From IMG/VR virus record IMGVR_UViG_3300008110_000009: DNA of 64,000 nt. The stretch is one strand, 5' to 3'. The stretch comes from a virus. Positions 11,582 through 47,699 of the stretch are shown one piece after another (the first letter of the stretch is position 1; each line of letters opens with the position of its first letter). The notes below the pieces were generated by a model. That model worked only from the letters and a program-made list of their open reading frames with translations, was not told the DNA's origin and did not search any database. A program made the position numbers and the translations under genes.

Positions 11582-12094
11582 TTATACTCCTCTAAATTCT
11601 TGATCCTGTGCTATTGCACAAGTAATTGTTCTGTAATATGGTTTATAACCAAATAAATGATGTGAGTTATCTGAGGTAACCTTCCCATCATTAGTTACAG
11701 TATAATATCTTATTTTATTTTCTGACTCTGGATAACCTATATAATCCCCGTATTTTATATCTACACCAAGTTCTTCTAAATGTTTAATATAAACAGATAA
11801 TATTAAATTACCAGGCTCTAGGTATCTCAACATACCACCTTTATAACTTGAGTTTTTCGGGGCCTCCACTTTAACAAGTGCATTAAACTCAATTGGTGGA
11901 AAATATTTTATTTCGTCCTGCCCAACTTCTCCGTAAACATCATCCTTATCTGTCTTCTGTCTATCAACCCTATAAAGGACAAGTTTTTGATTTAAATCAC
12001 CATGTAAGTATTCCTGACCTATTTGGACTTGTAAATTAAAGTCTTCTTCAGAAAAGAATTTACTTAATCTGGTTATGGGTAGTTTATTGCTCAT
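11582..12094 (-). CDS. Neck / head-closure protein (gp14-like)
   Basis: Gene position and 'DDVYGE...F.PP.E..ALV' motif. Confidence 0.55.
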   Translation of the reverse strand: MSNKLPITRLSKFFSEEDFNLQVQIGQEYLHGDLNQKLVLYRVDRQKTDKDDVYGEVGQDEIKYFPPIEFNALVKVEAPKNSSYKGGMLRYLEPGNLILSVYIKHLEELGVDIKYGDYIGYPESENKIRYYTVTNDGKVTSDNSHHLFGYKPYYRTITCAIAQDQEFRGV

Positions 12095-12145
12095 ACCCTA
12101 TAAATAGTTTATAAAGTATTTAGAATTACTTATATTATATACTGT

Positions 12146-13897
12146 ATGGAAACTAAAATACCAGAAATTGTAGCGAGAGAGATACTTTTTTCATATGCTG
12201 GTTCTAATAACCATCTATTGGATTTGAAAAGGAAAGTTTTAGAGCTTAAAAACTATTCTTTAAGTAGACCGCAAGCGGACTACGTTATAAAATATGAAAA
12301 AGTAATACCTAAGGTTGCTAGGAAATGGGTTAAAGTATTTTCTTCTTTTGCTGAAAAGATGAGAGAAGATAGGTTGTTACCTATCGCCCCAGAACAAATA
12401 TGGGTAGAAAAACTATTATGTGAAACAGATAAGGCTTATCATATATGGGGTAAAGTTGTAGACGGAGATATACTTCACGCTTTTTGGGTTCCTAAAATTG
12501 CTATAATACCAGAAGAAAAAAAATTAAATAGAACTATTGATTATAGCCCATATGATAACAGGCCACCGATGGATCATCAAAAAGAAGCCATAGAGAAACT
12601 ATTAGCAAATGACAAATTTATTCTTGCAGATGATATGGGGCTTGGTAAAACCACAGCCGCGGTTATTGCCGCTTTGGAAAGTGGTGCTAAAAAAATATTA
12701 ATAGTTTGCCCAGCAACCCTAAAGATAAACTGGGAACGAGAAATTAAAAATTACACTGACAGAAGAATATTGGTAATTGAAGGTAGAAAGTGGGGTTCCA
12801 CTTTTGATTTCTACATTATCAATTATGATATTCTTAAAAATTTTCACACAACAGACAAAAGTGAAGATAGTGAAGCATATAAACTAATTGCAAACAATGG
12901 ATTTGATTTAGCAATTGTAGATGAAGCTCATTACATCTCAAATGCCACAGCACAGAGAACAAAACTATTAAATGATATATTGGGTTTAATTCCTAGGGTT
13001 TGGTTATTAACCGGAACCCCAATGACTTCTAGACCTATTAACTATTATAACTTATTAAAAATTGTTGAGTCGCCGTTAGCACTAAATTGGCAAAGCTATG
13101 TTAGAAGATATTGTGCTGGTTATCAGTTTAGGGTTGGTAATAGAAAAGTTTGGAATACTAGCGGAGCATCCAATCTAGATGAATTAAGGGAAAAGACTAA
13201 AAATCTTGTTTTAAGAAGAATGAAGACTGATATCTTGGATTTACCAGAAAAAATCATTACCCCTGTTTATCTAGAGCTTCAAAGTAAATTCTATGATAAT
13301 GAATTAGAAGACTTTATAAGAATATCTTCTGAAAACAAACAAAAAGAAAGTATATCGGTAACACTTAATCGTTTAATGAATATTAGACAATTAATTGCTA
13401 TGGAAAAAATACCATACACTTGTGAATTGATTGATAAGTTTATTGAACAAAATAAAAAAGTCATTGTGTTTACAAATTTTACTGCAAGCCTAGACGCGTT
13501 ACATGAAAAATACAAAAAGAACTCTGTAATTTTGGATGGTAGAATGAGTAAAGATAAAAGACAAGAAAGTGTTGATAAATTTCAAACAAATGATAAAATA
13601 AAAGTCTTTATCTCCAACATAGTTGCAGGTGGCGTAGGAATTACTTTAACGGCGGCTGAGGGGGTTATAATGAATGATCTATCATTTGTACCTGCCCACC
13701 ATTCACAAGCCGAGGATAGAGCTTATAGACACGGACAAACTAAAAGCGTTTTAGTTTATTATCCAGTATTTGATAATACAATTGAAATTCAAGTATACAA
13801 CATACTTCAGAAAAAGAAGAATATTATTGATCAAGTAATGGGTGACGGCGAATACGGAGATACGTTTGCTAGCGAATTACTTAAGAACTTATTATAG
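12146..13897 (+). CDS. SNF2-family (SMARCAL1/HARP-like) helicase
   Basis: LADDMGLGKT, DEAH, LTGTP, GGVGITLT and QAEDRAYRHGQ motifs. Confidence 0.92.
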   Translation: METKIPEIVAREILFSYAGSNNHLLDLKRKVLELKNYSLSRPQADYVIKYEKVIPKVARKWVKVFSSFAEKMREDRLLPIAPEQIWVEKLLCETDKAYHIWGKVVDGDILHAFWVPKIAIIPEEKKLNRTIDYSPYDNRPPMDHQKEAIEKLLANDKFILADDMGLGKTTAAVIAALESGAKKILIVCPATLKINWEREIKNYTDRRILVIEGRKWGSTFDFYIINYDILKNFHTTDKSEDSEAYKLIANNGFDLAIVDEAHYISNATAQRTKLLNDILGLIPRVWLLTGTPMTSRPINYYNLLKIVESPLALNWQSYVRRYCAGYQFRVGNRKVWNTSGASNLDELREKTKNLVLRRMKTDILDLPEKIITPVYLELQSKFYDNELEDFIRISSENKQKESISVTLNRLMNIRQLIAMEKIPYTCELIDKFIEQNKKVIVFTNFTASLDALHEKYKKNSVILDGRMSKDKRQESVDKFQTNDKIKVFISNIVAGGVGITLTAAEGVIMNDLSFVPAHHSQAEDRAYRHGQTKSVLVYYPVFDNTIEIQVYNILQKKKNIIDQVMGDGEYGDTFASELLKNLL

Positions 13898-13938
13898 TTT
13901 TATTTATAATCTGGTATTTATTAGTAAAAGCTATTTTA

Positions 13939-17957: not shown

Positions 17958-17969
17958 ATTTTATTTTTT

Positions 17970-18014
17970 GGGTGACACATTAGCTTACGGGGAAACCGTA
18001 ATTTGCCTTTACCC
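17970..18014 (-). promoter_or_regulatory. Structured 5' leader of DNA polymerase mRNA
   Basis: GGGT/ACCC, GGCA/TGTC (with G.U) and TTACGG/CCGTAA nested stems ending 12 nt before the ATG. Confidence 0.55.
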
Positions 18015-18048
18015 TGTAAATATACATAAAATTATGGATAAAAAAAAA

Positions 18049-18417
18049 TTAAATAATGTTAATGAATAATTTTTCTTTTACTGGTAATATGAGTTTTGTG
18101 GTTGGATTAGAATTAGTGTCTAAAAATTGAACAATAAATTTACCTTCATACTTACCAGGTTTTACAGTTTGAGCCTCTGTAAATCTGTAAGTTATATAAT
18201 ACTCATCTGTTGTTTGATTATACTTTTTCGTTCTAGTTGTGAGTAGTGCTGAACCATTAAGTATTATCGGTTCTTCAGTTTTATGATCATACATTTCAAA
18301 ACTAATATCGGAATTTTCCAATAGATCATTAAATGATGATTTATCATTTTTAGCGTCATCAATTAATCTCATTTTTAATATTGGATCTGAGGCTCCTTGT
18401 CTAATAAAAAATTCCAT
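18049..18417 (-). CDS. BppU-like beta-sandwich structural protein
   Basis: F.IRQG..P.L...L and Y.F...T...G.Y.G.F.V pattern; late motif upstream. Confidence 0.5.
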   Translation of the reverse strand: MEFFIRQGASDPILKMRLIDDAKNDKSSFNDLLENSDISFEMYDHKTEEPIILNGSALLTTRTKKYNQTTDEYYITYRFTEAQTVKPGKYEGKFIVQFLDTNSNPTTKLILPVKEKLFINII

Positions 18418-18429
18418 ATAAAATAAATA

Positions 18430-19344
18430 TTATGTTAATCTAATCATTACAAAACTACCACTTCTGTAAAGACCTTGTAATGGGACACCCGCTGCGGAAG
18501 CCTCAATATCGTTGTTAAAACTTGACGTCACTTGTGATAATATAGTAAATCCATCTACTTTTAATTCGTCTTGAAGTTTAACACTACCACTAAACTCATA
18601 TAGATAACCAGGTGTAACAGAGTTTGTGTTAAAAGAAATTTCGCTACCAGTATGAACCGTTATTTGTGGATTTTCCCAACTATTATTTGCGAATAGTTTT
18701 AATTCTGCTGGATGAGACGTTCCACCAACTGTTCCAACATATAAATCTTTACCAACGTTTAAAAGATATGCGTCATTTTCGTACCCAACGTAACCTCCAT
18801 TATACGTGCTAGAATTTATACCCAAATCAACAAAATGAACAGTTTCATTTCCATTGTCTGCAGTTAAAACCAAATCAGAACTAGCTAAACTTCCGGAATT
18901 AATATTTGTTATATTAACCTGAGCGTAATATTCGTTATTAGCTTCAAAATGTGTGATATTAAAACTACCTGAATTGGTTAAATGAAGCTTAGGTGTATCT
19001 GGGCTGCTGATTGGCATTTTATCACCCATCACAACAAAGCCCGAGACATATAGATTACCATTATCTTGAATATTATTTGCACGTAGGCTACCCGTAATAA
19101 GAAACGATCCAGTAAACTTATGGTTATCATCCAAGCTATCGCCAAAATTTGATGACCCACTAATTGTTAAGTCGCCTTTAATAACTTGACTTCCAGTGAA
19201 GACGTGTGAACCACTATCAACAAGAACTTGTCTAAGACTTTGAAGTGTAGATTTATATGTTGTACTACCCAATACAACCGGGGTAACGCCCGTTAAACTT
19301 GGTGCTAGTGAACTAGATAATTGGGAAATTTTTAATCCTGCCAT
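18430..19344 (-). CDS. Tail fibre/spike-related protein
   Basis: KISQL N-terminus; repeated FTGS/ISGS/ITGS beta-motifs; 'GVPLQGLYR' C-terminus. Confidence 0.6.
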   Translation of the reverse strand: MAGLKISQLSSSLAPSLTGVTPVVLGSTTYKSTLQSLRQVLVDSGSHVFTGSQVIKGDLTISGSSNFGDSLDDNHKFTGSFLITGSLRANNIQDNGNLYVSGFVVMGDKMPISSPDTPKLHLTNSGSFNITHFEANNEYYAQVNITNINSGSLASSDLVLTADNGNETVHFVDLGINSSTYNGGYVGYENDAYLLNVGKDLYVGTVGGTSHPAELKLFANNSWENPQITVHTGSEISFNTNSVTPGYLYEFSGSVKLQDELKVDGFTILSQVTSSFNNDIEASAAGVPLQGLYRSGSFVMIRLT

Positions 19345-19357
19345 TTAAATAAATATT

Positions 19358-20806
19358 TTAGTATAAAGCCATATTATCGTCTTCTGTTATTAAATATTCA
19401 CCGTTTTCAGCCAAAAGGCCATTTGTAACGTATGATATTAAATCGTCATCACAATCAATGCCGCATATAAAGAAGTCATAATTATTAATTCTTGTTAAGA
19501 AATTGTGTCTAACATGTACAAAGCCTAGCGGTTCTTCATAATATTTTATTGATTTAATATTAAAACAAGAAACCCCAGAATGTACATTATTCATTAACCC
19601 TGTTCCCCCACCCCACGATTGAATAAATGGTTGAACCCCTCTATTAGAAGCAACAACCTCTTCCCAGTTCTCTTTTTTATAAATTGGTCTACCATTTAAG
19701 TATATTTTAAGCGTCCCTAATCTTCTTTGTCTCTCATCTGCCCACTTTTTATTTAAAAATTCATATTTTTCTTCATATGTTGCTAATTGATTTGAGGTAA
19801 CCGCAGTTATCACTGTATCAGAATAGTCAGATATTTTAAAACCAAGCATATCATTCCATCCACCCATATTTTCAATATCACAATTATCATAATGTTTGTA
19901 TCTATCGAAAACAATGGTAATGTTAAAATCTTTGGTCAACCCAGTTGCACATAAAGTTGGGGTTTGATCCATATCTGTATAATATGTTTCCGTATAAGCG
20001 TCGTTAGCGCAATACCCCGAATATCGAATAGCGGTCCATTTTATTCTTCCATCAGAAGTAAACTGAAAAGATAAATTACTGTCAGCATAATCGGATGGGC
20101 TATTTGATCCTCTAGTTCCAAAATAATAGAAAACACCTCCGCTAGACCATGGCAACCCCTCCCTATTAAAAATAAAATCCAAAGTCCACCCACTAGCTGT
20201 TCTTCTTTCAATTGTTGAAGGACAATCTAAAAAGGGCTCTTTAAACTGATAAGCCCAAGGTTTGTTACTTAGTTTATTAGGTAAGCCGCAACAAGCATCT
20301 TCATCAGCCAAACGTAATGTGCATTTTAAAACATTTGTTGTTCCTGTTGTAAATCCCGTAATTACGGATATTTCATCTGGTGAAGTAAACCTAATATCTT
20401 TAGCTAAAGGTTGGTTAAATGCTGATATTGTAAAATAGTGCGTTTCTCCAGTAAAACCTGTGTACTTGTAAACGTCACTGTTTAATATGGTGTGCTGGTA
20501 ATTTGTTGATACGTGGTTTACAAAATTAGAATATGGCACAGTTAATGTTAATCCAGAATATTTGTAATTTGGATCATTAATGGTATTATTATACTCATTT
20601 AAGCTAATAGTGTTCCTTGAACAACTAAAATTAAGCAAAGATTGGTCTATTTTTAGTGTTTGATAGGTAATTGGTGTGGACAAATCCAATACATCGGTAT
20701 TATAATCGTCTGTTACTTTACTTATCTCATAATCATAAAATTCTGAACTATCTAATTTAGAATCCAATCTACTACCATAAAACTTTAAAATATTCTGGCT
20801 ATTCAT
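19358..20806 (-). CDS. Virion structural protein, lectin/glucanase-like C-terminal region
   Basis: Beta-rich, 'GTLKIYLNG'; C-terminal 'LLAENGEYLITED'. Start moved to the second ATG because a TATTTAT motif sits 6 nt upstream of it. Confidence 0.5.
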   Translation of the reverse strand: MNSQNILKFYGSRLDSKLDSSEFYDYEISKVTDDYNTDVLDLSTPITYQTLKIDQSLLNFSCSRNTISLNEYNNTINDPNYKYSGLTLTVPYSNFVNHVSTNYQHTILNSDVYKYTGFTGETHYFTISAFNQPLAKDIRFTSPDEISVITGFTTGTTNVLKCTLRLADEDACCGLPNKLSNKPWAYQFKEPFLDCPSTIERRTASGWTLDFIFNREGLPWSSGGVFYYFGTRGSNSPSDYADSNLSFQFTSDGRIKWTAIRYSGYCANDAYTETYYTDMDQTPTLCATGLTKDFNITIVFDRYKHYDNCDIENMGGWNDMLGFKISDYSDTVITAVTSNQLATYEEKYEFLNKKWADERQRRLGTLKIYLNGRPIYKKENWEEVVASNRGVQPFIQSWGGGTGLMNNVHSGVSCFNIKSIKYYEEPLGFVHVRHNFLTRINNYDFFICGIDCDDDLISYVTNGLLAENGEYLITEDDNMALY

Positions 20807-20859
20807 ATGTAGATAAATATCTTTCATAGGATTTGATATTTATATAAAAAACCGTTTAG

Positions 20860-22075: not shown

Positions 22076-22078
22076 AGT

Positions 22079-22732: not shown

Positions 22733-22733
22733 T

Positions 22734-23735: not shown

Positions 23736-23774
23736 CTTTATTTTAATCAAATAAACAAATATATTTATAATATT

Positions 23775-24332
23775 ATGGGAAACGGAGCAATATCAGAAAA
23801 CGACTTAATGCACAAATTAGTGCAAGCAAAAAAAGTAATGAATAAAGTTGATGGTGGTAACTTTGAAAGAGGCCACATTAATGAAGACATTTTAAGAAGT
23901 GCACCAGAAGATATTTCTGAACAATCTGCCCCGCCAACTAGACAAATGGCGCCCCCAAGCGTTGATAGAATTCAACAATCAAAATTACCAGATCATATTA
24001 AAAAAGCTATGATCGATAACCCAATTCCACAGATTTCTTTAAATGAAACATTAGATATGGATTTCGTTAAAGGAGCTAAAAAATTAATGGAAAGAGAAGG
24101 TTTAGCAAAACCAACCCCACAACAAAAAAGTTCAGGCACAATAACAAACTCAAATATTGACATGAACGCAATCGCCACATTAATTGAAAATACAGTTAGA
24201 AAGGTTATGGATGAAAAATTAAATCAAATCCTTACTGCACAGCAAACAACATCAATTAATGAAAATCTAGTTTTAAAAGTTGGTGATTCAGTATTCAAGG
24301 GTAAAATCACAGGCGTAAATAAAGCCAAGTAA
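23775..24332 (+). CDS. Conserved-looking hypothetical late protein
   Basis: 'SKLPDHIKKAMIDNPI' motif; TATTTAT 6 nt upstream. Confidence 0.55.
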   Translation: MGNGAISENDLMHKLVQAKKVMNKVDGGNFERGHINEDILRSAPEDISEQSAPPTRQMAPPSVDRIQQSKLPDHIKKAMIDNPIPQISLNETLDMDFVKGAKKLMEREGLAKPTPQQKSSGTITNSNIDMNAIATLIENTVRKVMDEKLNQILTAQQTTSINENLVLKVGDSVFKGKITGVNKAK

Positions 24333-25610: not shown

Positions 25611-25612
25611 TT

Positions 25613-29858: not shown

Positions 29859-30640
29859 AAAATATCACAGTAATATTACCGGTTCATAAATTAAACGAAG
29901 ATTATAAAGAAATGTTATTTTATTCTGTTGAATCTGTAAAACAATTTTATAACGATGTTAAACTACTAATTGTGGCCCCAGCAAATCTTAAGAAGGATTT
30001 GTCAGATATAGATCTAGGTCAAAAATTAGAAATAAAATATCATTACCATAATGAAAGCGCCGATTTCTGTAGTCAAATAAACGAAGGAGCTAAAATTTGT
30101 GATACAGAATGGTTTTCAATTTTAGAGGTTGATGATGAATATCAAAAGATCTGGTTAACAAGTGTAAATGAATACATGAATGAATACCCAGAAGCACAAG
30201 TATTCTTACCAATCGTAAAGGATATTGATGAAACTGGTAAATTTACAAATTTTACAAATGAATCCGTTTGGGCATATGGGTTTTCAGAAACACAAGGGTT
30301 TTTAGATAACGAAGTTCTAATGGAATTTCAAAGCTACCAAATAAGTGGCGGGGTTTACAAAACAAAAACATTTTTAGAATTCGGCGGCTTAAAAGAAAAT
30401 ATCAAATTAACATTTGGCTACGAATTGTTATTAAGATTAACCCATAATGGTGTGAAAATTGTTGTTGTCCCAAGAATAGGATACAGACATGTAAACTTAA
30501 GAGAAGATTCCCTTTTCTGGAAATACAAAAATGATCAAGAAATAAAACTAGGAGAAAAAGAGGCCAAGTTTTGGATTGATACAGCAAAAAAAGAATTTTT
30601 CTTCACCAATAAACGAGAAGTAAATTATAGTGAAGCTTAA
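29855..30640 (+). CDS. Glycosyltransferase family 2-like
   Basis: ITVILPVH, 'INEG', 'EWFSILEVDD' and 'ELLLRL' GT-A motifs. Confidence 0.8.
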   Translation: MKNITVILPVHKLNEDYKEMLFYSVESVKQFYNDVKLLIVAPANLKKDLSDIDLGQKLEIKYHYHNESADFCSQINEGAKICDTEWFSILEVDDEYQKIWLTSVNEYMNEYPEAQVFLPIVKDIDETGKFTNFTNESVWAYGFSETQGFLDNEVLMEFQSYQISGGVYKTKTFLEFGGLKENIKLTFGYELLLRLTHNGVKIVVVPRIGYRHVNLREDSLFWKYKNDQEIKLGEKEAKFWIDTAKKEFFFTNKREVNYSEA

Positions 30641-31338
30641 TGCCAAGAAAACGTACCCAAAAAGTTTATTTTGGGGAGGATCAAGAGAAGGCGGTAGTTA
30701 GATACTTAGAAAGTTCAGACGACGCAGAAAGAAACAAGATATTCAATGAATATTTACGAGAACCCCTAGTAATAATGGTTGAGAGTATCATAAGAAGATA
30801 CAAACTATACAGAAAAGATTTTGAATTTGAGGACTTGCATACTGATACTATGTCTTTCCTTATAACAAAAATTAACAAATTCGACCATACAAAAAACCAT
30901 AAAGCATATTCCTATTTTGGAACCATTTGTAAGAATTACTTAATGGGCGCCATTCAAAAGGATACCAAAGATACAAACAGAAGTGTCTCTTATGAAGATA
31001 TATCCGAAGACATTGAGACACGTATTGATTTTTCATATACTATAGACGACTATCACGTTGATTATTCTGATGTTATAATTGCTTTAACTAATAAATTAGA
31101 AGACTTTATTGAAACAGAAGAATTGACCGACAATGAAAAGAAGTTAGGTTATGCTCTGTTAGAAATTTTTACCAATTTTGAGAGAATATTTCAAATAGGT
31201 GATGGTAATAAGTTTAATAAAAACCTGATTTTACTGTCTTTAAGAGAAATGACATCACTTTCAACCAAAGAGATACGTGTTTCGTTAAAAAGATATAAAA
31301 ACCTATATGATGGTATATTAGGCGGATTTTTAGATTAA
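30640..31338 (+). CDS. Late-transcription sigma factor (T4 gp55-like)
   Basis: 'KFD..KNHKAYSYFGTICKN', resembling the gp55 region-2 motif. Confidence 0.7.
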   Translation: MPRKRTQKVYFGEDQEKAVVRYLESSDDAERNKIFNEYLREPLVIMVESIIRRYKLYRKDFEFEDLHTDTMSFLITKINKFDHTKNHKAYSYFGTICKNYLMGAIQKDTKDTNRSVSYEDISEDIETRIDFSYTIDDYHVDYSDVIIALTNKLEDFIETEELTDNEKKLGYALLEIFTNFERIFQIGDGNKFNKNLILLSLREMTSLSTKEIRVSLKRYKNLYDGILGGFLD

Positions 31339-31353
31339 ATCTATTTATTATTT

Positions 31354-31731
31354 ATGAGACCACCGAGAAAAACATTATCATTAGACACCGACTCAGCCTT
31401 GGCTCTAATGCAGGAGATTTATAACGATATTGTGGAACAAAAAAATACGGCCACATTGATCATGAAAAAGATGCTTTCTTTTATGAAAGAATCTGAAGAT
31501 ATGTCCGTTATTGGGCCCGTAATTAAAGAACAACAAAAGATTCTTAATGAATGTACAGAAAAGAAAATATCATTAGTTAAAATCCAAAATACCCTAATCC
31601 AAAAGGGTGCCGGCTCCGACGGTAAGTTTGCACCAGGTAAAATGACTTTAACCGATGAAGATAGAGAGCTTCTAGAAAAATTAATGGACGATGATAAAGA
31701 TAAAAATAGAGGTGAAAAATTTGAAATATAA
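31354..31731 (+). CDS. Hypothetical coiled-coil late protein (small terminase candidate)
   Basis: Helical, 125 aa, TATTTAT 5 nt upstream; function is inference only. Confidence 0.4.
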   Translation: MRPPRKTLSLDTDSALALMQEIYNDIVEQKNTATLIMKKMLSFMKESEDMSVIGPVIKEQQKILNECTEKKISLVKIQNTLIQKGAGSDGKFAPGKMTLTDEDRELLEKLMDDDKDKNRGEKFEI

Positions 31732-36706: not shown

Positions 36707-36721
36707 AACTATTTATATATT

Positions 36722-37165
36722 ATGGACATTAAAAATATTGTAAAAAAGCATCTATTAGAAGCATTAGAAGAAGGTGGAGAAAAACCAGAGAATTATATGT
36801 TCTTTGGTAATATACAGCAAATGGCTAGACAATGTGAGCTTTTAATGAAAGAAGATCACAATCGTATTGATTCTATTTTAAAAGAACACGATTGGGCTCA
36901 AGATCATATCGCAGAAGCAAAAAGTTTATTAGACCAAGTTTTCGACTTCCTAATGAACGAAACCACTCGCTCTGAAGAATCACTAAATGAAGTTGAAGAA
37001 GAAATCGACGAAAGTAAAAATTGTCCAACTAATCCAGCAAAATGGGCGGCGTCAAAAGCAGCTGCTAAAGCAAAATTTGATGTATATCCTTCAGCATATG
37101 CAAATGGTTGGGCCGCAAAAAATTATAAAGCAAAAGGCGGTGGATGGAGAAAATGCAAAAAATAA
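36722..37165 (+). CDS. Hypothetical modular late protein
   Basis: 'DWAQDHI' module plus basic C-terminal 'YPSAYANGW...YKAKGGGWR' module. Confidence 0.55.
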   Translation: MDIKNIVKKHLLEALEEGGEKPENYMFFGNIQQMARQCELLMKEDHNRIDSILKEHDWAQDHIAEAKSLLDQVFDFLMNETTRSEESLNEVEEEIDESKNCPTNPAKWAASKAAAKAKFDVYPSAYANGWAAKNYKAKGGGWRKCKK

Positions 37166-37169
37166 TGCT

Positions 37170-38738: not shown

Positions 38739-38743
38739 AAATG

Positions 38744-38775
38744 CAAAAATAAAGAATATTTTGGAATATTCCAAA
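38744..38775 (-). promoter_or_regulatory. Bacteroidota primary sigma promoter
   Basis: TTTG-N20-TATTTTTG, an exact -33/-7 consensus match. Confidence 0.7.
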
Positions 38776-38778
38776 AAT

Positions 38779-38808
38779 AAAAAACCCCCCGAATTCGGAG
38801 GGTCTTTT
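38779..38808 (-). terminator. Intrinsic terminator after major capsid gene
   Basis: GACCCTCCGAATTCGGGGGGTT followed by a T-run on the minus strand. Confidence 0.8.
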
Positions 38809-38825
38809 ATTATAGACAATTAAGA

Positions 38826-40568
38826 TTATCTTAAAGTATCCAAGCTGAATGTGTTCAAACCACTTACGTTGATCACACCGAAGTAACGGTTGTTAACCAT
38901 TTTCTTCGCGTATCTTGTCATGATACCTTTGATAGGTGTCATGTTAAATGGATTGTACATAGTTGGGGTTAATTGTAGAGGCACATATGGTGCATAAATA
39001 TAACCAGCATCCAATAATGATTTACCTTTGTGACCGATCACAATCTTACCTGCTGGTAAATATGGATCACGGTATACTTGGTAACGACCAGCTAATGAAC
39101 CGATTTTTTCAATACCCATGTTGTATTGATCTTGCTCAGGAGCGGCATTTGATACGTGGAAATATTCTAAATCGTCGAATACTGCAGAAACTTCTGAAGA
39201 TACTACGATCCAGTTAGCGCCACCTCTCAATGTTGTTTTATGGATTTGAGCAGAAATTTGGTTGATTTTAGTAACCAAAGTTTGGTTCCAGTCTTTCTGA
39301 GTGTAACCCATAAATGGTGTTCCACCAGTTGCACCGTACTTCCACTCATTGTAATCCCACTTAGCTGTCCAAGCAGCACCTTTTCTAAGGTCACGTAAAA
39401 TTTCACGGTCAACCTCAGCAGCGATTTGCTCAGATAATAAAGCTGTTAATTCAGCTTCAGCATCGATGTTATGGAACGCAGATACGTCCTGTGCTAATTC
39501 TGGAGACCAGCTAGCTCTTAATTTTCTTTCAGTAACTGATACTGTTACAGAAGCTAAGTCGAAAGAAACCTCACCGATTTCATCTTCGAATTCTAAAGTA
39601 TCATACACTCTGTAAGTTACTTTGAAGTTAGCTAATGCTAAGTCGTTAGAACTGAAGTCAGCAGCAGCGAAACCGCTTGTTGCGCTATATGACTCTAAGT
39701 CAACGTTAAGGTAGATTTTACCTTCTTCGTCACAAATATCTTGGAATCTGTTAAGACCAGAACCACCTTTTACACCATACTCAACGATACCTTTACCATA
39801 TTTTTGAGTTACAATGTTAAAGTTTTTAACACCGTTGTTAGCAGTTGTGTTACCAGTAATTTCAACTTGTAGAGATGCTAAGAACTCTTCAGTATCCATT
39901 GCGTTACCGTTTACACCTACTAATTTACCTTGACCGTCTTTAGTGAAACCAGAAAGAACGATGATTGCGCTAGATACAGATGCACCACTTAGAGCAGTTG
40001 CACTTGTAGAAGCAACACCACTAGAGAATGTTACGAACGCATGAGGGTTTACTTCACTTACAGTGAAAGATCCTTTTGAATAATCAAATAGACCTTGATC
40101 AGCTGCATCTGAAGACTCATAGAAACGATCGTAAAGACTTCTAGCACTTGTAGTACCTGTGTCATAACCTAAGCTAGCAGCATCGTTGTTGCTTGGCATA
40201 CCAAACGGTGCTAAGTGTGCGTTAGATTGTCTTTCTTGGATTTTAGGTACAAAGTAGAACAATTTACCGATTGGTAAGTTCATAGCCTGTACAGAAACGA
40301 TGTCATTCGCTAATAATTTAGAGAAAACACGGCGGATAATTGGGAATACCACTGTCTCGAAAGAACCTGAAGAGTCAGAAACTGCTGCTTCGTTGATTAA
40401 ATAAGACGCTTGGTTTTCGTATAACTGCGCGATGTTATCTTTTTGATGGCCGTCAAGACCTTCTAGGAATCCTAAGTCTTCCCATTTTTTGATAGTATCT
40501 TCTTTGATAACACGAAGGTGCTTAAGACCGATGTTACCAACCATACCTGATTCTAATAATGCTCCCAT
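38826..40568 (-). CDS. Major capsid protein (T4 gp23-like)
   Basis: IVSVQAM..P.G, RKLRASWSPELAQD, DAEAELTALLSEQIAAEVDRE, YAPYVPL and GIMTRY motifs. Confidence 0.97.
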   Translation of the reverse strand: MGALLESGMVGNIGLKHLRVIKEDTIKKWEDLGFLEGLDGHQKDNIAQLYENQASYLINEAAVSDSSGSFETVVFPIIRRVFSKLLANDIVSVQAMNLPIGKLFYFVPKIQERQSNAHLAPFGMPSNNDAASLGYDTGTTSARSLYDRFYESSDAADQGLFDYSKGSFTVSEVNPHAFVTFSSGVASTSATALSGASVSSAIIVLSGFTKDGQGKLVGVNGNAMDTEEFLASLQVEITGNTTANNGVKNFNIVTQKYGKGIVEYGVKGGSGLNRFQDICDEEGKIYLNVDLESYSATSGFAAADFSSNDLALANFKVTYRVYDTLEFEDEIGEVSFDLASVTVSVTERKLRASWSPELAQDVSAFHNIDAEAELTALLSEQIAAEVDREILRDLRKGAAWTAKWDYNEWKYGATGGTPFMGYTQKDWNQTLVTKINQISAQIHKTTLRGGANWIVVSSEVSAVFDDLEYFHVSNAAPEQDQYNMGIEKIGSLAGRYQVYRDPYLPAGKIVIGHKGKSLLDAGYIYAPYVPLQLTPTMYNPFNMTPIKGIMTRYAKKMVNNRYFGVINVSGLNTFSLDTLR

Positions 40569-40601
40569 TTTTTTGGATTTTATTTGTTTAGTTTTATTTT
40601 A

Positions 40602-41807
40602 TTATTTTAACTTACTCATTAAGTCCTTCATTCTTCTGAATTGTGGGTTTTCATAAGCTTTTGACTCTGCCAACATTTCTTGTGAAGATGAGCTTGAAGG
40701 AGTAGTTGCAATTTTTTCAACAACAGACTCGGTTACTGGTTTTTTAGTTTCAAGTTCTGCTTTGATAGAATTGTATAGATTTTTAGATTCGTTTATAGTT
40801 GAAATTGAATCAAATCTTTTTAAAATATTCAATTTCTCCTGTTTTGTAGTTGAATGTTCAGTAAATAAACGTGTTGCATAAGCAAGATTAGCATTAAACA
40901 CAGCAACTTCATTAAGTTTTTCTTTGAAAAGAACTAAAGCTTTTTTGTATTCAGAATTTTGCTTTTTAAGATTCTCAACCTCTTCGTTGATTGCTCCAGC
41001 AGCAAATACTTTCTTACTTTTTAAACCAGCTCTATCAGATCCACCCTTATCACCATGTTTATTCCATTTGGTTCTAGCAGCTTCTGTCGCTTCAACCTCC
41101 ATAGCATCTTCTTCAGCCATTTCCGATTCTTTTTCAGAATCTTCAACGTCTTCGTCATCTAATTCGATTTCGTAAACAGTTTCTTCGCTACCGTCTTCAC
41201 CTTCTGCAACTTCTTCAATAGACTCTTCCTCATTCCAGTCTTCAGGTATTTCAATTTCTTCTTCTTCAGAAACTTCACCTTCTTCCTCTTCTTCGGATTC
41301 GTCTAATTTAATGATGTATTCATCGTCCTCATCTTTAAGTTCGATGTTGTTACCATCTTTTTTAACAACTATACCATCTTCATCAGACATAGCTTTGAAA
41401 ACTTTTAAAACTTCCTCATCAGAAGCTCCTGTCATATCAAGCATATCATCATCAGCTGGCTCGCCCATTGATGGCATATCATCCATTGCTGGAGATTCGT
41501 CATCAACATTTTTTGATGGTTCATCATTTATCGAGGGTATTTCATCATCATCAGCTTCCTCAGCATCATCTTCCTCTTCTTCATCGGAAGCTGGCTGTTC
41601 TGACATGTCTTTTGATTCCTCTTCTTCAGGATTCATAGCTTCTTCTTCAGCAGCTACTTCTTCCTCTTCTTCTTCTGACTCTTTAAGCAACTCATTTAGT
41701 TCTTGCTTCATTACTGAAGAAAGTATACCTTTTGCATTTTGCTTTACTGCTTCTTCAAGTGTATTAACTTGAAGCAACGCTTGTTCTAGAATAGATTTTT
41801 CGGTCAT
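40602..41807 (-). CDS. Prohead core/scaffold protein (gp22-like)
   Basis: Highly acidic with coiled-coil C-terminus; lies between protease and capsid genes. Confidence 0.8.
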   Translation of the reverse strand: MTEKSILEQALLQVNTLEEAVKQNAKGILSSVMKQELNELLKESEEEEEEVAAEEEAMNPEEEESKDMSEQPASDEEEEDDAEEADDDEIPSINDEPSKNVDDESPAMDDMPSMGEPADDDMLDMTGASDEEVLKVFKAMSDEDGIVVKKDGNNIELKDEDDEYIIKLDESEEEEEGEVSEEEEIEIPEDWNEEESIEEVAEGEDGSEETVYEIELDDEDVEDSEKESEMAEEDAMEVEATEAARTKWNKHGDKGGSDRAGLKSKKVFAAGAINEEVENLKKQNSEYKKALVLFKEKLNEVAVFNANLAYATRLFTEHSTTKQEKLNILKRFDSISTINESKNLYNSIKAELETKKPVTESVVEKIATTPSSSSSQEMLAESKAYENPQFRRMKDLMSKLK

Positions 41808-41898
41808 CTTTTTATTTGATTTACTATATAAATATGCGTATAATCAAAAAAATCTACTTCTCAATATTGAAAAGAATGATTTTTTCTCGTTTTTATTA

Positions 41899-42588
41899 TT
41901 ATTTTGTTAAAAAAGAATCTAGTTTACCCATTAGTTTTTTCATCCTATCTTCAACGACCGGTCTTTCTTCAACAGTTTCGTTGAACTTATCCTTATCATT
42001 AATATCTTGGAATACATATGCACCAGGTGTTGATGGTGAAGACACTAAGTCAAAACAAACTAACTCAAAATCGTCTTGTACAATATTTTGACCTTTAATT
42101 TGTTTTAATGATCCAACCCCTCTAGATGATATACCTAGAGTAACCCCATTTAGTATTAGCATAGCCGCCTGGTCTCCCTTGCAGCTAACTATACCCATTT
42201 TTTTCCAACCAGGTGATGTTAAAATTTTTATTTTACCCATTAAGGTTTTTCCTTCCCACCACGTTTCTAAAATTGTGTGAGAAACTCTATCAAGATCGAT
42301 TAGAGATGAGGATGGGTGATTTAATTCGTTTAATGCAGATCCCTTTTTTATAATTGTTTGGTATTTTTCATTTTCCCTTTTTAATAAATTTTCAGGGTAA
42401 ATTCTACCATTTTTATTTGGGGTATCAAACTTTTGTAAAACAGCATACAGAATAAGGTCCTGATCGGTATCCTTATTCTGCATTTCTGTAATAATATTCT
42501 TGTTTTTATAATCTTCGGGTGATATGTGACCAGCATCATATTCAATCAAAATGCCTTTACCCGTTTCATTTGGTCCCAATACTTTCAT
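41899..42588 (-). CDS. Prohead protease (gp21-like)
   Basis: NKNGRIYP, ELNHP, VSH, GISSRGVGS and DLVSSPSTPGA motifs. Confidence 0.93.
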   Translation of the reverse strand: MKVLGPNETGKGILIEYDAGHISPEDYKNKNIITEMQNKDTDQDLILYAVLQKFDTPNKNGRIYPENLLKRENEKYQTIIKKGSALNELNHPSSSLIDLDRVSHTILETWWEGKTLMGKIKILTSPGWKKMGIVSCKGDQAAMLILNGVTLGISSRGVGSLKQIKGQNIVQDDFELVCFDLVSSPSTPGAYVFQDINDKDKFNETVEERPVVEDRMKKLMGKLDSFLTK

Positions 42589-42632
42589 TTATAGATATAT
42601 TAATATATCATATAAATACAAGCATTTTTGAA

Positions 42633-43061
42633 TCAAATCTTAGATTTGCTAAAATTGAACAAGCTTTTGTCAGATAAACACTTTTCAATTGAAGAATAAA
42701 GAAAGGTTTTTAATATTGATTTAATACTCTGAGATTTTACATCAAAAAAATTATCAACAAATAATGTGATCTCTAAATTCATAAAAGATCTCTTATTCAT
42801 TTTTATCCCCTTTGTTCTAATATCAAGATCAACTATACTTTCTTTTTTAAAATAACCATTAAAATCGTGTGTTCTTATTAGTTCTTTTATAGATTTCCTA
42901 GCAAAAGAAATTGTTTTGTCAAAATCTAATTCTTCGTTTTCAGGTTCAACCCAAGCATTTAATTTTAAGTAAATGGTTTTTAAATTTTTAAAGTCTACAG
43001 TACCATAACCAATTTTTACTTCTTTATAATCCCCTAGAGGAATATATTTCCCGATTTTCAT
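42633..43061 (-). CDS. Hypothetical protein
   Basis: 142 aa ORF. Confidence 0.55.
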   Translation of the reverse strand: MKIGKYIPLGDYKEVKIGYGTVDFKNLKTIYLKLNAWVEPENEELDFDKTISFARKSIKELIRTHDFNGYFKKESIVDLDIRTKGIKMNKRSFMNLEITLFVDNFFDVKSQSIKSILKTFLYSSIEKCLSDKSLFNFSKSKI

Positions 43062-43143
43062 TAACTTTTTACATAATTTTATTTATATTATGGTGTAATA
43101 TAATAATAACTAAAAATTTTTAATTTTCCAAAAAATTGTATTA

Positions 43144-43150
43144 TATTTAT
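43144..43150 (+). promoter_or_regulatory. Late promoter motif TATTTAT (example of ~20 copies)
   Basis: Found on the coding strand upstream of structural genes on both strands; see findings. Confidence 0.65.
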
Positions 43151-43155
43151 TTTAT

Positions 43156-43350
43156 ATGATTATAATTGACTTAAAAAAAGAAAAAAACATTGAGTCTGCT
43201 TTAAGAACTTACAAATATAAAGTTCAAAGAATAAAGCAGGTTCAAAAGTTAAGGGAGAGACAAGAATTTGTCAAACCATCAGTAAAAAGGCGCGCTGAAA
43301 TTCGCAAAGCGATATATGTGCAAAAAATCAAAAATGGTCTCGATAATTAA
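43156..43350 (+). CDS. rpsU: 30S ribosomal protein bS21 (phage-encoded)
   Basis: IESALR.YK.KV......LRERQEFVKPSVKRR...KA.Y; 64 aa, Bacteroidota type. Confidence 0.92.
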   Translation: MIIIDLKKEKNIESALRTYKYKVQRIKQVQKLRERQEFVKPSVKRRAEIRKAIYVQKIKNGLDN

Positions 43351-43365
43351 TCAAGACCATTTTTT
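43330..43365. terminator. Inverted repeat over convergent stop codons (bidirectional terminator candidate)
   Basis: AAAAATGGTCTCGA-TAATTAA-TCAAGACCATTTTT. Confidence 0.6.
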
Positions 43366-44090
43366 AATTCTATCAATCTGAAGTAATTTAATCTGGAAAC
43401 TTCTTTTGTGTTAACTTCTTGTTTAACTCTATTAAGTTTTTCGTTCATTTCTTTGTCATTCGATTCTACTAAAAGACCTTCAATTTTATTATTGATACCT
43501 TCTTTCAGTTCGGTTGTTTTAACAACAAGCTCATCATTTGATAATGACATAATATCTTTAAATTCTTTCTTTTGTTCTTCGTTTAAATTATTAGAATATA
43601 AAACATTAAAATTGTTTGCCAATACCCCGTAAAGAAGACTTTCATTAACAGTAAAAGGCTCATTACCTTTTGTTGCAATATCTTTTTTCTTTGTTAAATG
43701 CTCAACTAATTTCTTTTTCGCGACAACTTTGCTTTCAATATTTGATAATGTATCTTTTGAAAATAGTTGATCCAAAGACTCGTATAATTCATTACTATCT
43801 GAAGATATATTACCTAATTTTTTATCTAGTTTTTTACAAAAATCAGTAATTTCACTAATTGTTGATTGGCTATTTACCATATTCTCCAACCCCTCAATAT
43901 ATAGCTTTGCGGTTTCTTTATCCTCAATATATTTGTTTTCGATCTCCTCATAAAACAAATACATCTCTTTGAACTTCTTGTTCTCAAGTACGGTTTTAAT
44001 AATATCTTTTATTTCAGATTTATTCTTGCTGCCGTATGATTCGGTCAACTTCTTTAACAGTTTAGTTTTAATGATACCAACTTTGCTCAT
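43347..44090 (-). CDS. Hypothetical helical protein downstream of portal
   Basis: 247 aa ORF in the head module. Confidence 0.6.
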   Translation of the reverse strand: MSKVGIIKTKLLKKLTESYGSKNKSEIKDIIKTVLENKKFKEMYLFYEEIENKYIEDKETAKLYIEGLENMVNSQSTISEITDFCKKLDKKLGNISSDSNELYESLDQLFSKDTLSNIESKVVAKKKLVEHLTKKKDIATKGNEPFTVNESLLYGVLANNFNVLYSNNLNEEQKKEFKDIMSLSNDELVVKTTELKEGINNKIEGLLVESNDKEMNEKLNRVKQEVNTKEVSRLNYFRLIELKNGLD

Positions 44091-44092
44091 TT

Positions 44093-45889
44093 TTATTGGT
44101 TTAATATGTCTTTTAATTTATTTTCTATTTCATAAATATTCTTCTTAGCTTTATCTAGATCAAATAAATCTGAAATGTCGTCACTTTCTCCTAGAATATT
44201 ATTCATTTTTATTTTTCTACTTTCACTTAATGGTTCTGCTGGTGCTGAATCGCCGCCCCCTGATGGTGGTGGTGATGTCATATCCATTCCAGAATCCCCA
44301 CCCTCAGCTGCTGCCGCATCTACTTTTGCTCTTTCTTCTTCTGGTATACCATACTTAGAATCTACCTCATCAAATACACCAGATCTTGGGATGATCTTAG
44401 CTGTATTTGTTAATTCAGCCCCCATAGCTCTTTCAAGTCTTTGTTGCTGAAGATCAAGTATAACTTCATTATCACTCATACCCAAGATATTTTTCTTAGC
44501 CCAAGTATGTGAAACAGGTAGAATACCAACTTGTGATTGATCCGAAGTGGCGTCTTTGTAAAGTGTCACCTTTTCTTTCCATTGCTCAATCTTTAATAGA
44601 TCCGCTTGTGAAGATGGATTAGTTAAACCTAATGTAAAGTTTTCTAATTCGTCTTCTAAACCTAAAAGATATAAGTGAATTAATGCTATTTTATTTAATT
44701 CTTGAACTAAAGATTTTTGAACTCTATTAATTGTTCTTGCAAAACGAATGTCCATTAATGCAAGATTTTTACCGTCGCCAACAACTTCTTCAAAACCTAA
44801 AAACGCTTTAGGTATTCTAAGTGCAGCTAATAGTTTCTTTTGAATATACTCAATATCGGCAATCTCGCCTAAGTTTTGTGCTCCTGCTAAAGTCTCAATT
44901 GGACTAGGTGCAGCTGGATCACGAACTGGTATAAAATAATCTTGATCAATAGCCATCTGATTATATCTCATATCGACTTGACCATTTCTTTGGTCAACAA
45001 CAGTGTCTCTTTTGAATTTACTTGCAACACGTTGTACATATGCTTCAATATCTTTATCATCCATGTTACCAACAAACACCTTAAACACTCTTCTTTCGGG
45101 CGCTCTTGATGTTCTATAAATCAACATAGCATCTTCAGCTAAAAGTAATTGTTTCCAAATTCTTCTAACTTTATCTAACATTGATGTACCATAAGGAAGT
45201 TTTCTATCATCTCCTAATAATCTAAAATGAGCTACTTCCCATGATTGAAATTCCATGTCTTTGTTTTTCCATGTAAAACGCAATTCACGAATTGGCATTC
45301 TAATTTCACCTTGATTAGGTGTTCTTGTTTGAGCTCCCTCCCATCTTTCAATTTCAATATTTGGTAATTGCTGACAACCAACAACCCCCTTTTCTGGATC
45401 ACTTTTTAAGTAAACAAAGTTATCACCATACTTACATAAGTTTCTAGCCCACATTTGAAGATTGGTGTTTATATCCAACCTATTTTCAAATAAATCTGTT
45501 AAAATATTTTTTACTCGCGTAGATTCTGAATAAACGCTTAAGATAGTCCCTTTTTCTGATATTGTTGTAGACTCTTCAGAATATATATCCAAAGCGGCTG
45601 ATATCTCAGGAGTAAATTCCATCGACTCAAAATCATAATACGCTGCCAATCTATTTGGTTCGTAATAAACAGACTGATTATATAATGAATTATCTAATTT
45701 AGTCCATTTATCAAAAAGAAATTGCGATTGCTGCGCTTGCAGTTTCGCCTTTTCAAATTCAACTGGATCATCCGTTTTTAATAACTCTTCTCTTGAAAAA
45801 TTAAAGGAAGGTGGATTTTGATCCCCTTTGTTTTGAAACCCAAATACTTTGGTTAACCTCTGATAAATGGTCAAGTCTTGATTCGCCAT
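44093..45889 (-). CDS. Portal protein (T4 gp20-like)
   Basis: LAEDAMLIYRTSRAPERRVF, QDYFIP, IETLAG and DI.YIQKKL motifs. Confidence 0.95.
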   Translation of the reverse strand: MANQDLTIYQRLTKVFGFQNKGDQNPPSFNFSREELLKTDDPVEFEKAKLQAQQSQFLFDKWTKLDNSLYNQSVYYEPNRLAAYYDFESMEFTPEISAALDIYSEESTTISEKGTILSVYSESTRVKNILTDLFENRLDINTNLQMWARNLCKYGDNFVYLKSDPEKGVVGCQQLPNIEIERWEGAQTRTPNQGEIRMPIRELRFTWKNKDMEFQSWEVAHFRLLGDDRKLPYGTSMLDKVRRIWKQLLLAEDAMLIYRTSRAPERRVFKVFVGNMDDKDIEAYVQRVASKFKRDTVVDQRNGQVDMRYNQMAIDQDYFIPVRDPAAPSPIETLAGAQNLGEIADIEYIQKKLLAALRIPKAFLGFEEVVGDGKNLALMDIRFARTINRVQKSLVQELNKIALIHLYLLGLEDELENFTLGLTNPSSQADLLKIEQWKEKVTLYKDATSDQSQVGILPVSHTWAKKNILGMSDNEVILDLQQQRLERAMGAELTNTAKIIPRSGVFDEVDSKYGIPEEERAKVDAAAAEGGDSGMDMTSPPPSGGGDSAPAEPLSESRKIKMNNILGESDDISDLFDLDKAKKNIYEIENKLKDILNQ

Positions 45890-45933
45890 ACTATATAAAT
45901 ACTATTCTATTTAATCTAATTAAAATTTAAGGA

Positions 45934-47686
45934 TTAATCAACCCTTTTTTTGCCACCAAACAACCATGAATATTGATTATATTGTTCTTTAGCGGGTACA
46001 TTGGATGTAGATGACTTGGCATATGGTGAACTATCTATTTGCATCATCCCTACTTGATCAAAAGAAGTGCCATAAGAATATACGTTACTCTGCGGTGCTT
46101 CATATGTTCTTTCTGACATCACCCAAGATTCAAGCATAGCTTTATTCTGTTGTTCGTTTCTTTTAAGTTGTGTAAATGATATGTCACCGGCGTACATTGC
46201 AATAGCAATACTCATAATCGCGTCATCATGAGCTCCTTTCATGTGATTTGGTTTACCATTAATATAAACGAATGTATTAAGTTCATTTAGTAACCTGTGT
46301 GACCTGATTATAAAATCGTGTCTTAATTGTTCTTCAAAACAAGCAACTATTTGAGTTCTTTTGTTATTAAAGTTTATACCAGGTATTTTTTCCAACGCTT
46401 TATGATTGTATTCCCACATATTCTTTGTGTTAAACCCATCAATAAACAAATCCCTATAATTCATCTCCTGCAACTTCCTTGATGTTGCTACACCCATTCC
46501 TCCTGTTATATCAATAACAATGAACGCGTTATAAAGAATACCCCACAATATATTCTAACACCTGCTCCCTTGAATCAAAGTCAATAATATTAATGGAAGA
46601 AAAGTCATCACTATCACCTCTGCTAACATCCACCCCCATAATATATCTATGCCCCTCTTCTGGATCTTTCCATTGCCATAATGTACCTTGCATGTATTTT
46701 TCCTTGGGAGGTTTAACCATTGTTTTAGCAATTCTTTCCATTGTTTCAGAAGGAATAACGCTGTCACCAGATCCCAAGAAGTCACACTCTAATTCTTGTG
46801 CAATTTTTCTTTTATCATACTTGAATTTTTTAGACATAGATTCAAACCAACTTGAATATGGTTTATAACCCTGGTCCATATATTCTTGATATTTCATTAG
46901 ATCATAGTCCGGATCATTAAGTGTGATTTCCTCATCATTATATTGTTCCCTATTCAACATATAATGAACAATATCATCTACTTTTAACCAAGCTAAATCT
47001 TTTGTATATCTTGGGTCTTTGAACCATCTTAAATCCGTTATATGAAAATCATTAATACCTCTAATAGCTTGTTCATAAACACCGTAATATATTGGGTCAT
47101 AACCGTTTGGTGTTGAAATTAATATGATTTTACCTCCGGTTGATAACGATGCCATAGATGCTGCCCAAAAGTCTTCACCAGCTTCAATATATGCGGCCTC
47201 ATCAAAAACTAATATGGTTGGTGTGTAACCACGTAACGCATCTGATGATGTAGCAACAGCTTTAACCTCACAACCATTATTTAATCTAAATCTACTTTCA
47301 GAGTTTTTATCAGGATGAAACCCAACATTAATCCAATCTGGCCACTGATCCAAAAACATTCTCACTTTATTAGCCATTTCTATTGCGGTATCTCTTTTAT
47401 TCGCAATAATCAACACTCTTTCGGGGTTTTCTGGTTTTGCTAATTGTAATTTCTTAGAAATCCAAGCAGCAGTAACAGTAGATACACCAGCTTGTCTATA
47501 TTTTCTTGTGATATTTTCATTAAATTGTTCGTAATCGTTTAGTAATTGTATTTGATCTGGAAACAACTCTAGAGGTACAAATTTCTTTTGTGTGTTGTCA
47601 TATGTTTGAAGATACGTTTTAAGCGCGTAAGGTGTATCTTTCATTACACGTGCATATTCTTTTAATTGTTCAATTTTGTTGTTCAT
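45934..47686 (-). pseudogene. Terminase large subunit (gp17-like), split by an apparent frameshifting deletion at ~46546
   Basis: ATPase part (KYRQAGVST, FDEAA, ISTPNG) and start of the nuclease (GVDVSRG..DDFS) in 46529..47686. The rest of the nuclease (…HDDAIMS) is in another frame, 45934..46545. Confidence 0.8.
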
Positions 47687-47699
47687 ATATATAAATACA

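Follow-up and report, generated by a model that had tools for sequence, protein, structure and literature searches.

Results

The late box and the genes behind it

We analysed a 64,000-nucleotide (nt) stretch of viral DNA (IMG/VR record IMGVR_UViG_3300008110_000009; hereafter the window), and in particular a short AT-rich motif, TATTTAT, which precedes many of its structural genes and which we call the late box. The source is an uncultured freshwater phage of Flavobacterium-type bacteria, and the window has a G+C content of 32% and is devoid of Shine-Dalgarno sequences. Bacteroidota do not use Shine-Dalgarno pairing, and A-rich, Shine-Dalgarno-free leaders are usual in this phylum. The head module (genes 38826–47686) runs in the order large terminase (TerL, split), portal, bS21 on the opposite strand, protease, scaffold and major capsid protein (MCP). 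Because bS21 lies reversed within the block of TerL, portal, protease and MCP, the window is a member of the bS21-encoding freshwater Bacteroidota myophages of Chen et al. 2022 (PMC9723584), in which the same gene block likewise carries bS21 on the opposite strand. According to that study, bS21 and the structural genes are co-transcribed late and the region is not one operon; it makes no mention of promoters, untranslated regions, leaders, sigma factors or leaderless mRNAs, and the late box and its fusion to the ATG are additions to its account. The closest cultured phage by DNA is the distant Flavobacterium phage vB_FspM_immuto.

Throughout, the gap is the number of nt that separate the end of TATTTAT from the ATG on the coding strand. 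The initial annotation of this DNA had listed ten genes with a gap of only 4–6 nt, and all ten boxes are indeed present on the coding strand at the distances it gave: 12094 (5), 18417 (5), 19344 (4), 20806 (6), 23775 (6), 31354 (5), 36722 (5), 43156/bS21 (5), 45889/portal (5) and 47686/terminase (4). The three genes that it had named keep their names, since bS21 matches PF01165, the portal matches phrog_213 and the terminase matches phrog_2. The ten short-gap sites, with a further box that faces one of them, are the following:

12092–12106, minus strand: late box (12100–12106), 5-nt spacer and ATG of a protein of 170 amino acids (aa), function not assigned; first gene of a divergent unit
18415–18429, minus strand: late box (18423–18429), 5-nt spacer and ATG of a 122-aa protein; the box adjoins the stop codon of the upstream gene
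19342–19355, minus strand: late box (19349–19355), 4-nt spacer and ATG of a 304-aa protein
20804–20819, minus strand: late box (20813–20819), 6-nt spacer and ATG of a 482-aa protein, in a 53-nt divergent region
20837–20843: outward-facing late box for the gene starting at 20860, in the same 53-nt divergent region
23762–23777, plus strand: late box (23762–23768), 6-nt spacer and ATG of a 185-aa protein
31342–31356, plus strand: late box (31342–31348), 5-nt spacer and ATG of a 125-aa protein, 15 nt past the candidate sigma gene
36710–36724, plus strand: late box (36710–36716), 5-nt spacer and ATG of a 147-aa protein
43144–43350, plus strand: late box (43144–43150), 5-nt spacer and the bS21 gene (43156–43350, 64 aa), antisense in the head module
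45887–45901, minus strand: late box (45895–45901), 5-nt spacer and ATG of the portal gene
47684–47723, minus strand: terminator hairpin (47700–47723) with its T-tail running into the late box (47691–47697), 4-nt spacer and ATG of the terminase gene

The portal gene (44093–45889, minus strand) matches phrog_213 with an E-value of 8.8e-63. In bS21, residues 4–56 match model positions 2–54 of PF01165 (41.9 bits), and the beginning of this match at residue 4 indicates that the N-terminus is complete. Pfam and PHROGs searches gave no function for the other seven of the ten genes. Two starts needed a decision: we placed one at 20806 and not at 20827, the start of the longest open reading frame (ORF), because the upstream in-frame ATG is not conserved in relatives, and the terminase start at 47686 and not at the GTG at 47719, because this GTG sits inside the terminator hairpin. 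Leaderless mRNAs make poor use of start codons other than AUG, and all 197 short-gap orthologue contexts collected from related loci have ATG as the start. The spacers of 4–6 nt leave no room for a purine-rich element.

Placement of the box in the window

Over the entire window TATTTAT shows no enrichment, with 43 copies against 48 expected. Of these 43 copies, 25 lie in sense orientation at most 60 nt upstream of an ORF of at least 80 aa. Among nine control heptamers of like composition, seven give 6–10 copies so placed, and the two that overlap the motif or share its letters (TTTATAT and ATTTATT) give 14 and 18. A gap of 4–6 nt is found for nine such ORFs, or ten with the 64-aa bS21, as against 0–3 for the controls, where the three come from the motif-overlapping ATTTATT. 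Sorted into 22 late units, the boxes of the window fall into two separate classes, ten at a gap of 4–6 nt and twelve at 11–38 nt, with no real gene at 0–3 or 7–10 nt; by a binomial calculation, 10 or more of the 22 would share a 3-nt bin among 41 positions with a probability of 1.2e-6. In all 22 units the box is oriented like the gene downstream of it. The structural genes carry the box and no late box was found before the replication genes PolB and SNF2 helicase, so that the label 'late' is a reasonable one.

The coding-strand consensus is VTATTTATW, and no conserved -35 element accompanies it. Position tables show a weak T-rich tract 17–19 nt upstream of the box, with 55–61% T in the short-gap and long-gap classes alike, which could be a faint upstream element or merely the tail of preceding terminators.

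Conservation of the spacing across related loci

We collected 126 related loci from IMG/VR (portal identity 75–100%, other anchor proteins down to 35%) and located the orthologous starts by tblastn. A histogram of the spacing, which the initial annotation had proposed as a check, is clearly bimodal over 493 distinct box–ORF contexts at these loci: 107 contexts have a gap of 4, 52 a gap of 5 and 27 a gap of 6 (186 in total at 4–6), only 3 fall at 0–3 and 6 at 7–10, and 287 form a broad class at 11–45. Leaderless mRNAs are expected to give a bimodal spectrum of leader lengths in which very short leaders are rare, and the spacing agrees with this. Control heptamers show no peak at 4–6 nt across the same loci, and two related records of ~250 kb contain the gap-4 pattern 9 and 7 times, as against 2 and 1 times for a reversed control.

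Followed gene by gene, the short gap is retained to different degrees. It is 4–6 nt before the portal gene in 45 of 45 distinct relatives, with 16 different spacers, and before the terminase gene in 29 of 30, with the layout of hairpin, box and ATG conserved. The gap is exactly 4 at 19344 in 11 of 11 relatives and exactly 6 at 20806 in 13 of 13; at 12094 the box is found at 4–6 nt in 6 of 6 distinct relatives, and at 23775 in 5 of the 7 with an aligned ATG. The gene at 36722 keeps a gap of 4–5 in 11 of 16 relatives, among 14 different spacers. Half of the relatives (6 of 12) retain the box at 18417, the rest having a stop codon beside the ATG or the variant TATTAT. At 31354 the gap is 4 in 8 of 11 relatives, which mostly retain a single box; in the window, two overlapping boxes, TATTTATTATTTATG, occupy 31342–31355 on the plus strand, and the second of them (31349–31355) runs into the ATG.

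The leadered genes keep the box as well, and their gap drifts, from 13 to 23 nt before the protease, from 18 to 27 before the scaffold and from 11 to 19 before the gene g35333. The sequence upstream of the box is poorly conserved and that of the spacer is free. As the short-gap genes fix the gap while their spacers vary, the constraint appears to act on spacing and not on sequence. Synonymous changes start at codon 2 of the short-gap genes, and in-frame stops lie upstream of their starts.

The leadered class

The initial annotation had assigned A-rich leaders to the sheath, tube and scaffold genes, and this is borne out by gaps of 37, 38 and 20 nt. The tail sheath matches PF04984 and phrog_23, the tail tube phrog_4542. 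These three sites are:

10061–10107, minus strand: late box (10101–10107) 37 nt before the ATG of the tail sheath gene
6923–6970, minus strand: late box (6964–6970) 38 nt before the ATG of the tail tube gene
41805–41834, minus strand: late box (41828–41834), T at +5, A at +6, A-rich leader and ATG of the scaffold gene (gap 20)

The MCP gene follows the scaffold gene and has no box of its own. Also leadered are a head-tail adaptor-like protein at 13939 (gap 17) and a protein of more than 1127 aa at 1–3381 (gap 15), and the baseplate-hub-like protein at 5531 has no box before its start.

Where transcription may start

At the 275 leadered sites, counting from the end of the box, T occupies +5 in 64% and A occupies +6 in 83%. 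A pyrimidine followed by A at +6 is present at 61% of these sites, compared with 10–20% at neighbouring positions and after control heptamers, and an A at +5 to +7 was counted in 81%. A pyrimidine at -1 and a purine at +1 are the usual signature of a start site. At the short-gap genes it is the A of the ATG that stands at +5 to +7, preceded by a pyrimidine in 86% of 197 contexts, compared with 37% for other genes. The -7 element TAHHTTTG of Flavobacterium johnsoniae, a host-type organism, agrees with this spacing, lying 4–5 nt ahead of the mapped transcription start (PMC6847099).

The terminase site narrows this region further. A terminator scan found a conserved 10-bp hairpin that ends 2 nt before the terminase box and whose T-tail enters the box; since the hairpin adjoins the box, only the few bases directly ahead of the ATG would be left for a start of terL transcription, unless terL is transcribed by read-through. 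The box adjoins intrinsic terminators at 47700, 59946 and 60743. At two terminator–promoter junctions (59919–59975 and 60744–60775, minus strand) the late box lies 2–3 nt past the hairpin, and the leaders are 21 and 15 nt long. The genes at 12094 and 20806 and bS21 head divergent units, where the boxes are the sole conserved elements in intergenic regions of 51–94 nt.

The initial annotation had suggested that, if the motif is a -10-type box, transcription starts at or next to the AUG. Judged by comparison of sequences, this proposal is well supported by the fixed gap, the near-empty bins, the pyrimidine–A step, the terminator and the presence of a gene for a candidate gp55-like sigma factor.

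A candidate sigma factor

The gene that precedes the short-gap site at 31354 encodes the probable reader of the box:

30640–31338, plus strand: candidate phage sigma factor of 232 aa, probable reader of the late box

The protein matches phrog_234, 'late sigma transcription factor', with an E-value of 6.6e-4, and reaches 23.2 bits with PF04542 (Sigma70_r2), just below the cut-off of 24. Its homologues number more than 7,900; the best 120 share at least 82% identity with it, several carry PF04542, and the Joint Genome Institute names them 'specialized sigma subunit'. A profile built from 20 members finds T4 gp55 (7d7c_F) as the best solved chain, with an E-value of 0.0017 over residues 18–140. 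The AlphaFold2 model is poor (predicted local distance difference test score, pLDDT, of 62); of the best 20 Foldseek matches, 18 are sigma-factor chains and two are integrative models, and no match has an E-value of 0.001 or better. These scores are weak and mutually consistent, and the 232-aa protein is the probable reader of the late box. A homologue with 31% identity (E 1e-13) is encoded by phage immuto.

bS21 and the Immutovirus clade

In the window bS21 is one of the ten short-gap genes; among 46 distinct relatives it has a gap of 4–6 nt in only 11. The others have a TACTTAT variant, leaders of 13–20 nt, or a TATATTT box with an A-run. In distant relatives (e.g. L020, L035, L037 and L060–L071), TATATTT with an A-run, and not the late box, stands upstream of bS21, and in these phages a different class of promoter may drive the gene, with different timing. 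Between bS21 and the neighbouring gene (42633–43061, minus strand), the region 43062–43155 contains a second plus-strand TATTTAT at 43080–43086. Read on the minus strand this is TATAAATA, 18 nt before the ATG of the neighbour, and contigs of two RNA runs end at 43077 and 43079.

Phage immuto (MW353175.1, L127) carries VTATTTAT before its portal gene, before its terminase gene, where the box follows a terminator, and before other structural genes. As immuto has both the box and the sigma homologue, the two co-occur in two clades. Its portal and terminase genes are leadered, with gaps of 19 and 21 nt, in contrast to the short gaps of the window, and in the Immutovirus clade (81 loci) the portal is leadered in 66 of 66 contexts, with a gap of 14–32 nt. 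A 45-aa gene of immuto, immuto26A_186, has a gap of 4 nt. Short gaps make up 9 of 261 contexts (3%) in this clade compared with 186 of 493 (38%) in the bS21 clade, a comparison that represents a single phylogenetic contrast between unequally sampled regions. We did not find bS21 within 8 kb of the portal in the Immutovirus clade, nor in the cultured immuto genome. A possible laboratory system for the promoter is offered by phage immuto, paired with Flavobacterium sp. LMO8, and by its clade (L128–L207).

RNA contigs and the split terminase gene

Parts of the head region are contained in 20 metatranscriptome runs. We examined four of these as assembled Logan contigs, which derive from relatives 90–95% identical; such contigs reveal neither RNA ends, strand nor DNA carry-over, and neither confirm nor refute a start at the AUG. 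Contig ends lie at 43077/43079 and at 36726, and in one relative's RNA contig the similarity to the window breaks exactly at 47697, the upstream edge of the terminase box. No predicted start coincides with the adapter-joined ends at 41801 and 38844–38848. Read-through RNA may exist.

In the window, the large terminase gene (45934–47719, minus strand) is split into ORFs of 385 and 204 aa with a break near 46545. In relatives it is a single ORF of 589–597 aa. At the break ~41 nt are missing compared with the relatives L001 and L002, which shifts the frame. The terL DNA is 87–90% identical to that of L001, yet the portal protein is 100% identical. The split gene may reflect a mosaic, an assembly fault or a defective variant.

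Discussion

A proposed late promoter fused to the start codon

Based on the placement of the box and on the conservation of its distance to the ATG, we propose that VTATTTATW is a late promoter consisting of a single -10-type element without a conserved -35 box, which would most likely be read by the host RNA polymerase together with the phage's own diverged sigma factor (30640–31338). We infer that transcription most likely begins 5–7 nt past the box, at the A of a pyrimidine–A step. This start would be followed by an A-rich, Shine-Dalgarno-free leader of ~5–33 nt in 12 of the 22 units. In the other ten, which include the portal, large terminase and bS21 genes, the start A would coincide with the A of the ATG, leaving no leader or one of 1–2 nt, and host ribosomes would presumably translate these ten mRNAs by a leaderless route. 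A -10-only late promoter that starts about 45% of the late messages at the AUG is, in our judgement, the best reading of these sequences and probably the correct one.

Several observations weigh against this proposal. The scores behind the sigma assignment are weak, and the structural model is poor. With the gap of 4 that is commonest in the family, the ATG begins at +5, one base short of the conserved A of the leadered sites at +6. In F. johnsoniae, 87% of leaders are longer than 10 nt and leaders of 10 nt or less are a minority (PMC6847099); given this minority, efficient leaderless translation in the host group is an assumption. Furthermore, RNA contigs bridge the box–ATG junctions at 31354, 36722, 43156 and 47686, so that RNA, a read-through transcript or contaminating DNA must include sequence upstream of these ATGs, and one contig ends at 45897, inside the portal box.

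Alternative explanations

The same contigs bear on an alternative in which the box is a promoter element and transcription starts inside or upstream of it, so that the short-gap genes would have leaders of 6–15 nt and would not be leaderless. The contig end in the portal box, the bridged junctions and the leadered A one base beyond the ATG's A of the commonest class would all fit such a start; contig ends, however, are not RNA ends. An upstream start would leave unexplained the near-empty bins at 0–3 and 7–10 nt, the freezing of the gap in the short class only, and the pyrimidine at -1 of the short-gap ATGs, and at terL the terminator stem, ending 2 nt before the box, leaves no room for it. 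We therefore regard an upstream start as unlikely.

A different reading concerns what the two classes are for. The initial annotation had seen in them a two-tier late translation programme, with leaderless mRNAs for low-copy and leadered mRNAs for high-copy proteins, in a phage that supplies its own bS21, and one may suppose that bS21 tunes such a programme. The copy-number part fits the low-copy portal and terminase, which are short-gap, and the sheath, tube and scaffold/MCP genes, which are leadered. The rule is only partly supported, because the leadered class also includes the likely low-copy proteins at 13939 and 1–3381. For the part played by bS21, the sister clades speak in favour: short gaps are frequent in the bS21 clade and rare in the Immutovirus clade, which shares the box and the sigma homologue and in which no bS21 was found. 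This is one phylogenetic contrast only, and bS21 itself is short-gap in a minority of its relatives. Moreover, the most abundant phage proteins are leadered and would not be served by a bS21 that favoured leaderless mRNAs, which argues against such a simple preference, and we found no published work connecting bS21 with leaderless initiation in Bacteroidota. A bS21-tuned two-tier programme thus seems to us quite improbable as it stands, and the link between leader class and bS21 stays tentative.

A related and more specific idea is that the fused box and ATG are a derived trait of the bS21 clade, functionally tied to the phage bS21 and giving a translational switch. Ribosomes carrying the phage bS21 would then treat mRNAs that leave the platform and exit channel empty unlike the leadered mRNAs of the host. 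We consider this switch a long shot.

It could also be argued that the box acts on RNA, as a processing site (e.g. for an AU-specific endoribonuclease) or as an AU-rich element that enhances translation in polycistronic late transcripts initiated elsewhere. For five of the ten short-gap genes the box is situated between the genes of a same-strand row, in a spacer of 12–44 nt, RNA contigs cross several of the junctions, and a distance of 4–6 nt resembles Shine-Dalgarno spacing. UAUUUAU, however, is unable to pair with the anti-Shine-Dalgarno sequence, and most boxes lie 11–45 nt from the ATG, which is unfit for an enhancer that depends on spacing. The box also heads divergent units (12094/12146, 20806/20860 and 43156) and comes after terminators; such places need a promoter, and no other element in them is conserved. 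Moreover, a candidate dedicated sigma factor co-occurs with the box in two clades. An element acting at the RNA level is accordingly very doubtful. A chance occurrence in AT-rich intergenic DNA, or wrongly assigned start codons, might be suspected from the low G+C content and the lack of overall enrichment of the heptamer, and is refuted as far as sequence data reach, being extremely improbable in view of the lack of a 4–6 nt peak for the control heptamers, the small binomial probability, the conservation of the layout in relatives down to 30–75% protein identity, the synonymous changes from codon 2, the upstream in-frame stops and the S21 Pfam match from residue 4.

Implications

If the proposed promoter with its start at the AUG is correct, a late promoter would be defined and a sigma factor proposed for the freshwater phages that encode bS21, which are abundant. 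Initiation on leaderless messages, among them those of the portal and terminase, would then be systematic in a phylum without Shine-Dalgarno recognition, whose leaders are mostly long and rich in A. As the two sister clades share the promoter and differ in bS21 and in leader use, the role of the phage bS21 becomes testable.

Comparison with known systems

In T4, a late promoter consists of a single 8-bp box that lies roughly one turn of the helix ahead of the start, without a -35 element (PMC2988020, PMC7892883). As in the T4 late system (TATAAATA, gp55, gp33, gp45), a lone AT-rich -10 box stands before virion and packaging genes in the window. The window's candidate would, like gp55, be a small diverged phage sigma factor with a region-2 domain; gp55 is its best solved match, and with 232 aa it is longer than gp55 with 185 aa. 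The box TATAAATA and the window's TATTTATW are identical at six of eight positions; positions 4 and 5 are T instead of A, and the window box thus reads as the T4 box on the other strand. On the coding strand the window therefore shares with T4 the single -10 box without a conserved -35, and does not carry the TATAAATA consensus itself. We rejected the idea that the T4 box of the other strand is the functional one, since the orientation of the box follows the downstream gene in every unit. A gp45-type clamp (PF09116) gave no match in two related records of ~250 kb, each estimated to be ~75% complete. T4 late mRNAs carry Shine-Dalgarno leaders, whereas in nearly half of the window's units the box is fused to the ATG.

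The host-type promoter offers a second comparison. The TAHHTTTG element of Bacteroidota sigma-A has the same position and a similar length, and T-12, A-11, T-8 and T-6 can be aligned with the late box (PMC6847099). The late box differs in having A and not T at -7, and A or T instead of the nearly invariant G at -5. TAHHTTTG itself is under-represented in the window, with 57 copies compared with 78 ± 8.5 in shuffled sequences, and 100 of 100 shuffles had at least 57. Owing to the differences at -7 and -5 and to this depletion, a host-type -7 element was rejected as the late promoter.

The Thermus host phylum uses leaderless mRNAs widely. For the Thermus phages phiYS40 and Lalka27a, leaderless transcripts with mapped starts have been published; most of their transcripts are leaderless, compared with ~45% of the late units in the window, where the starts are predicted from sequence. 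The host groups differ too, F. johnsoniae being mostly leadered, unlike Thermus. In the literature we found no paper that ties TATTTAT or leaderless mRNAs to Flavobacterium phages. In summary, leaderless phage transcripts are already known from the Thermus phages, and a -10-only late promoter read by a phage sigma factor is known from T4. New here are a late box and a sigma candidate for a described and abundant phage group, the systematic use of the fused layout in a host phylum of mostly long leaders, and the contrast between the two sister clades.

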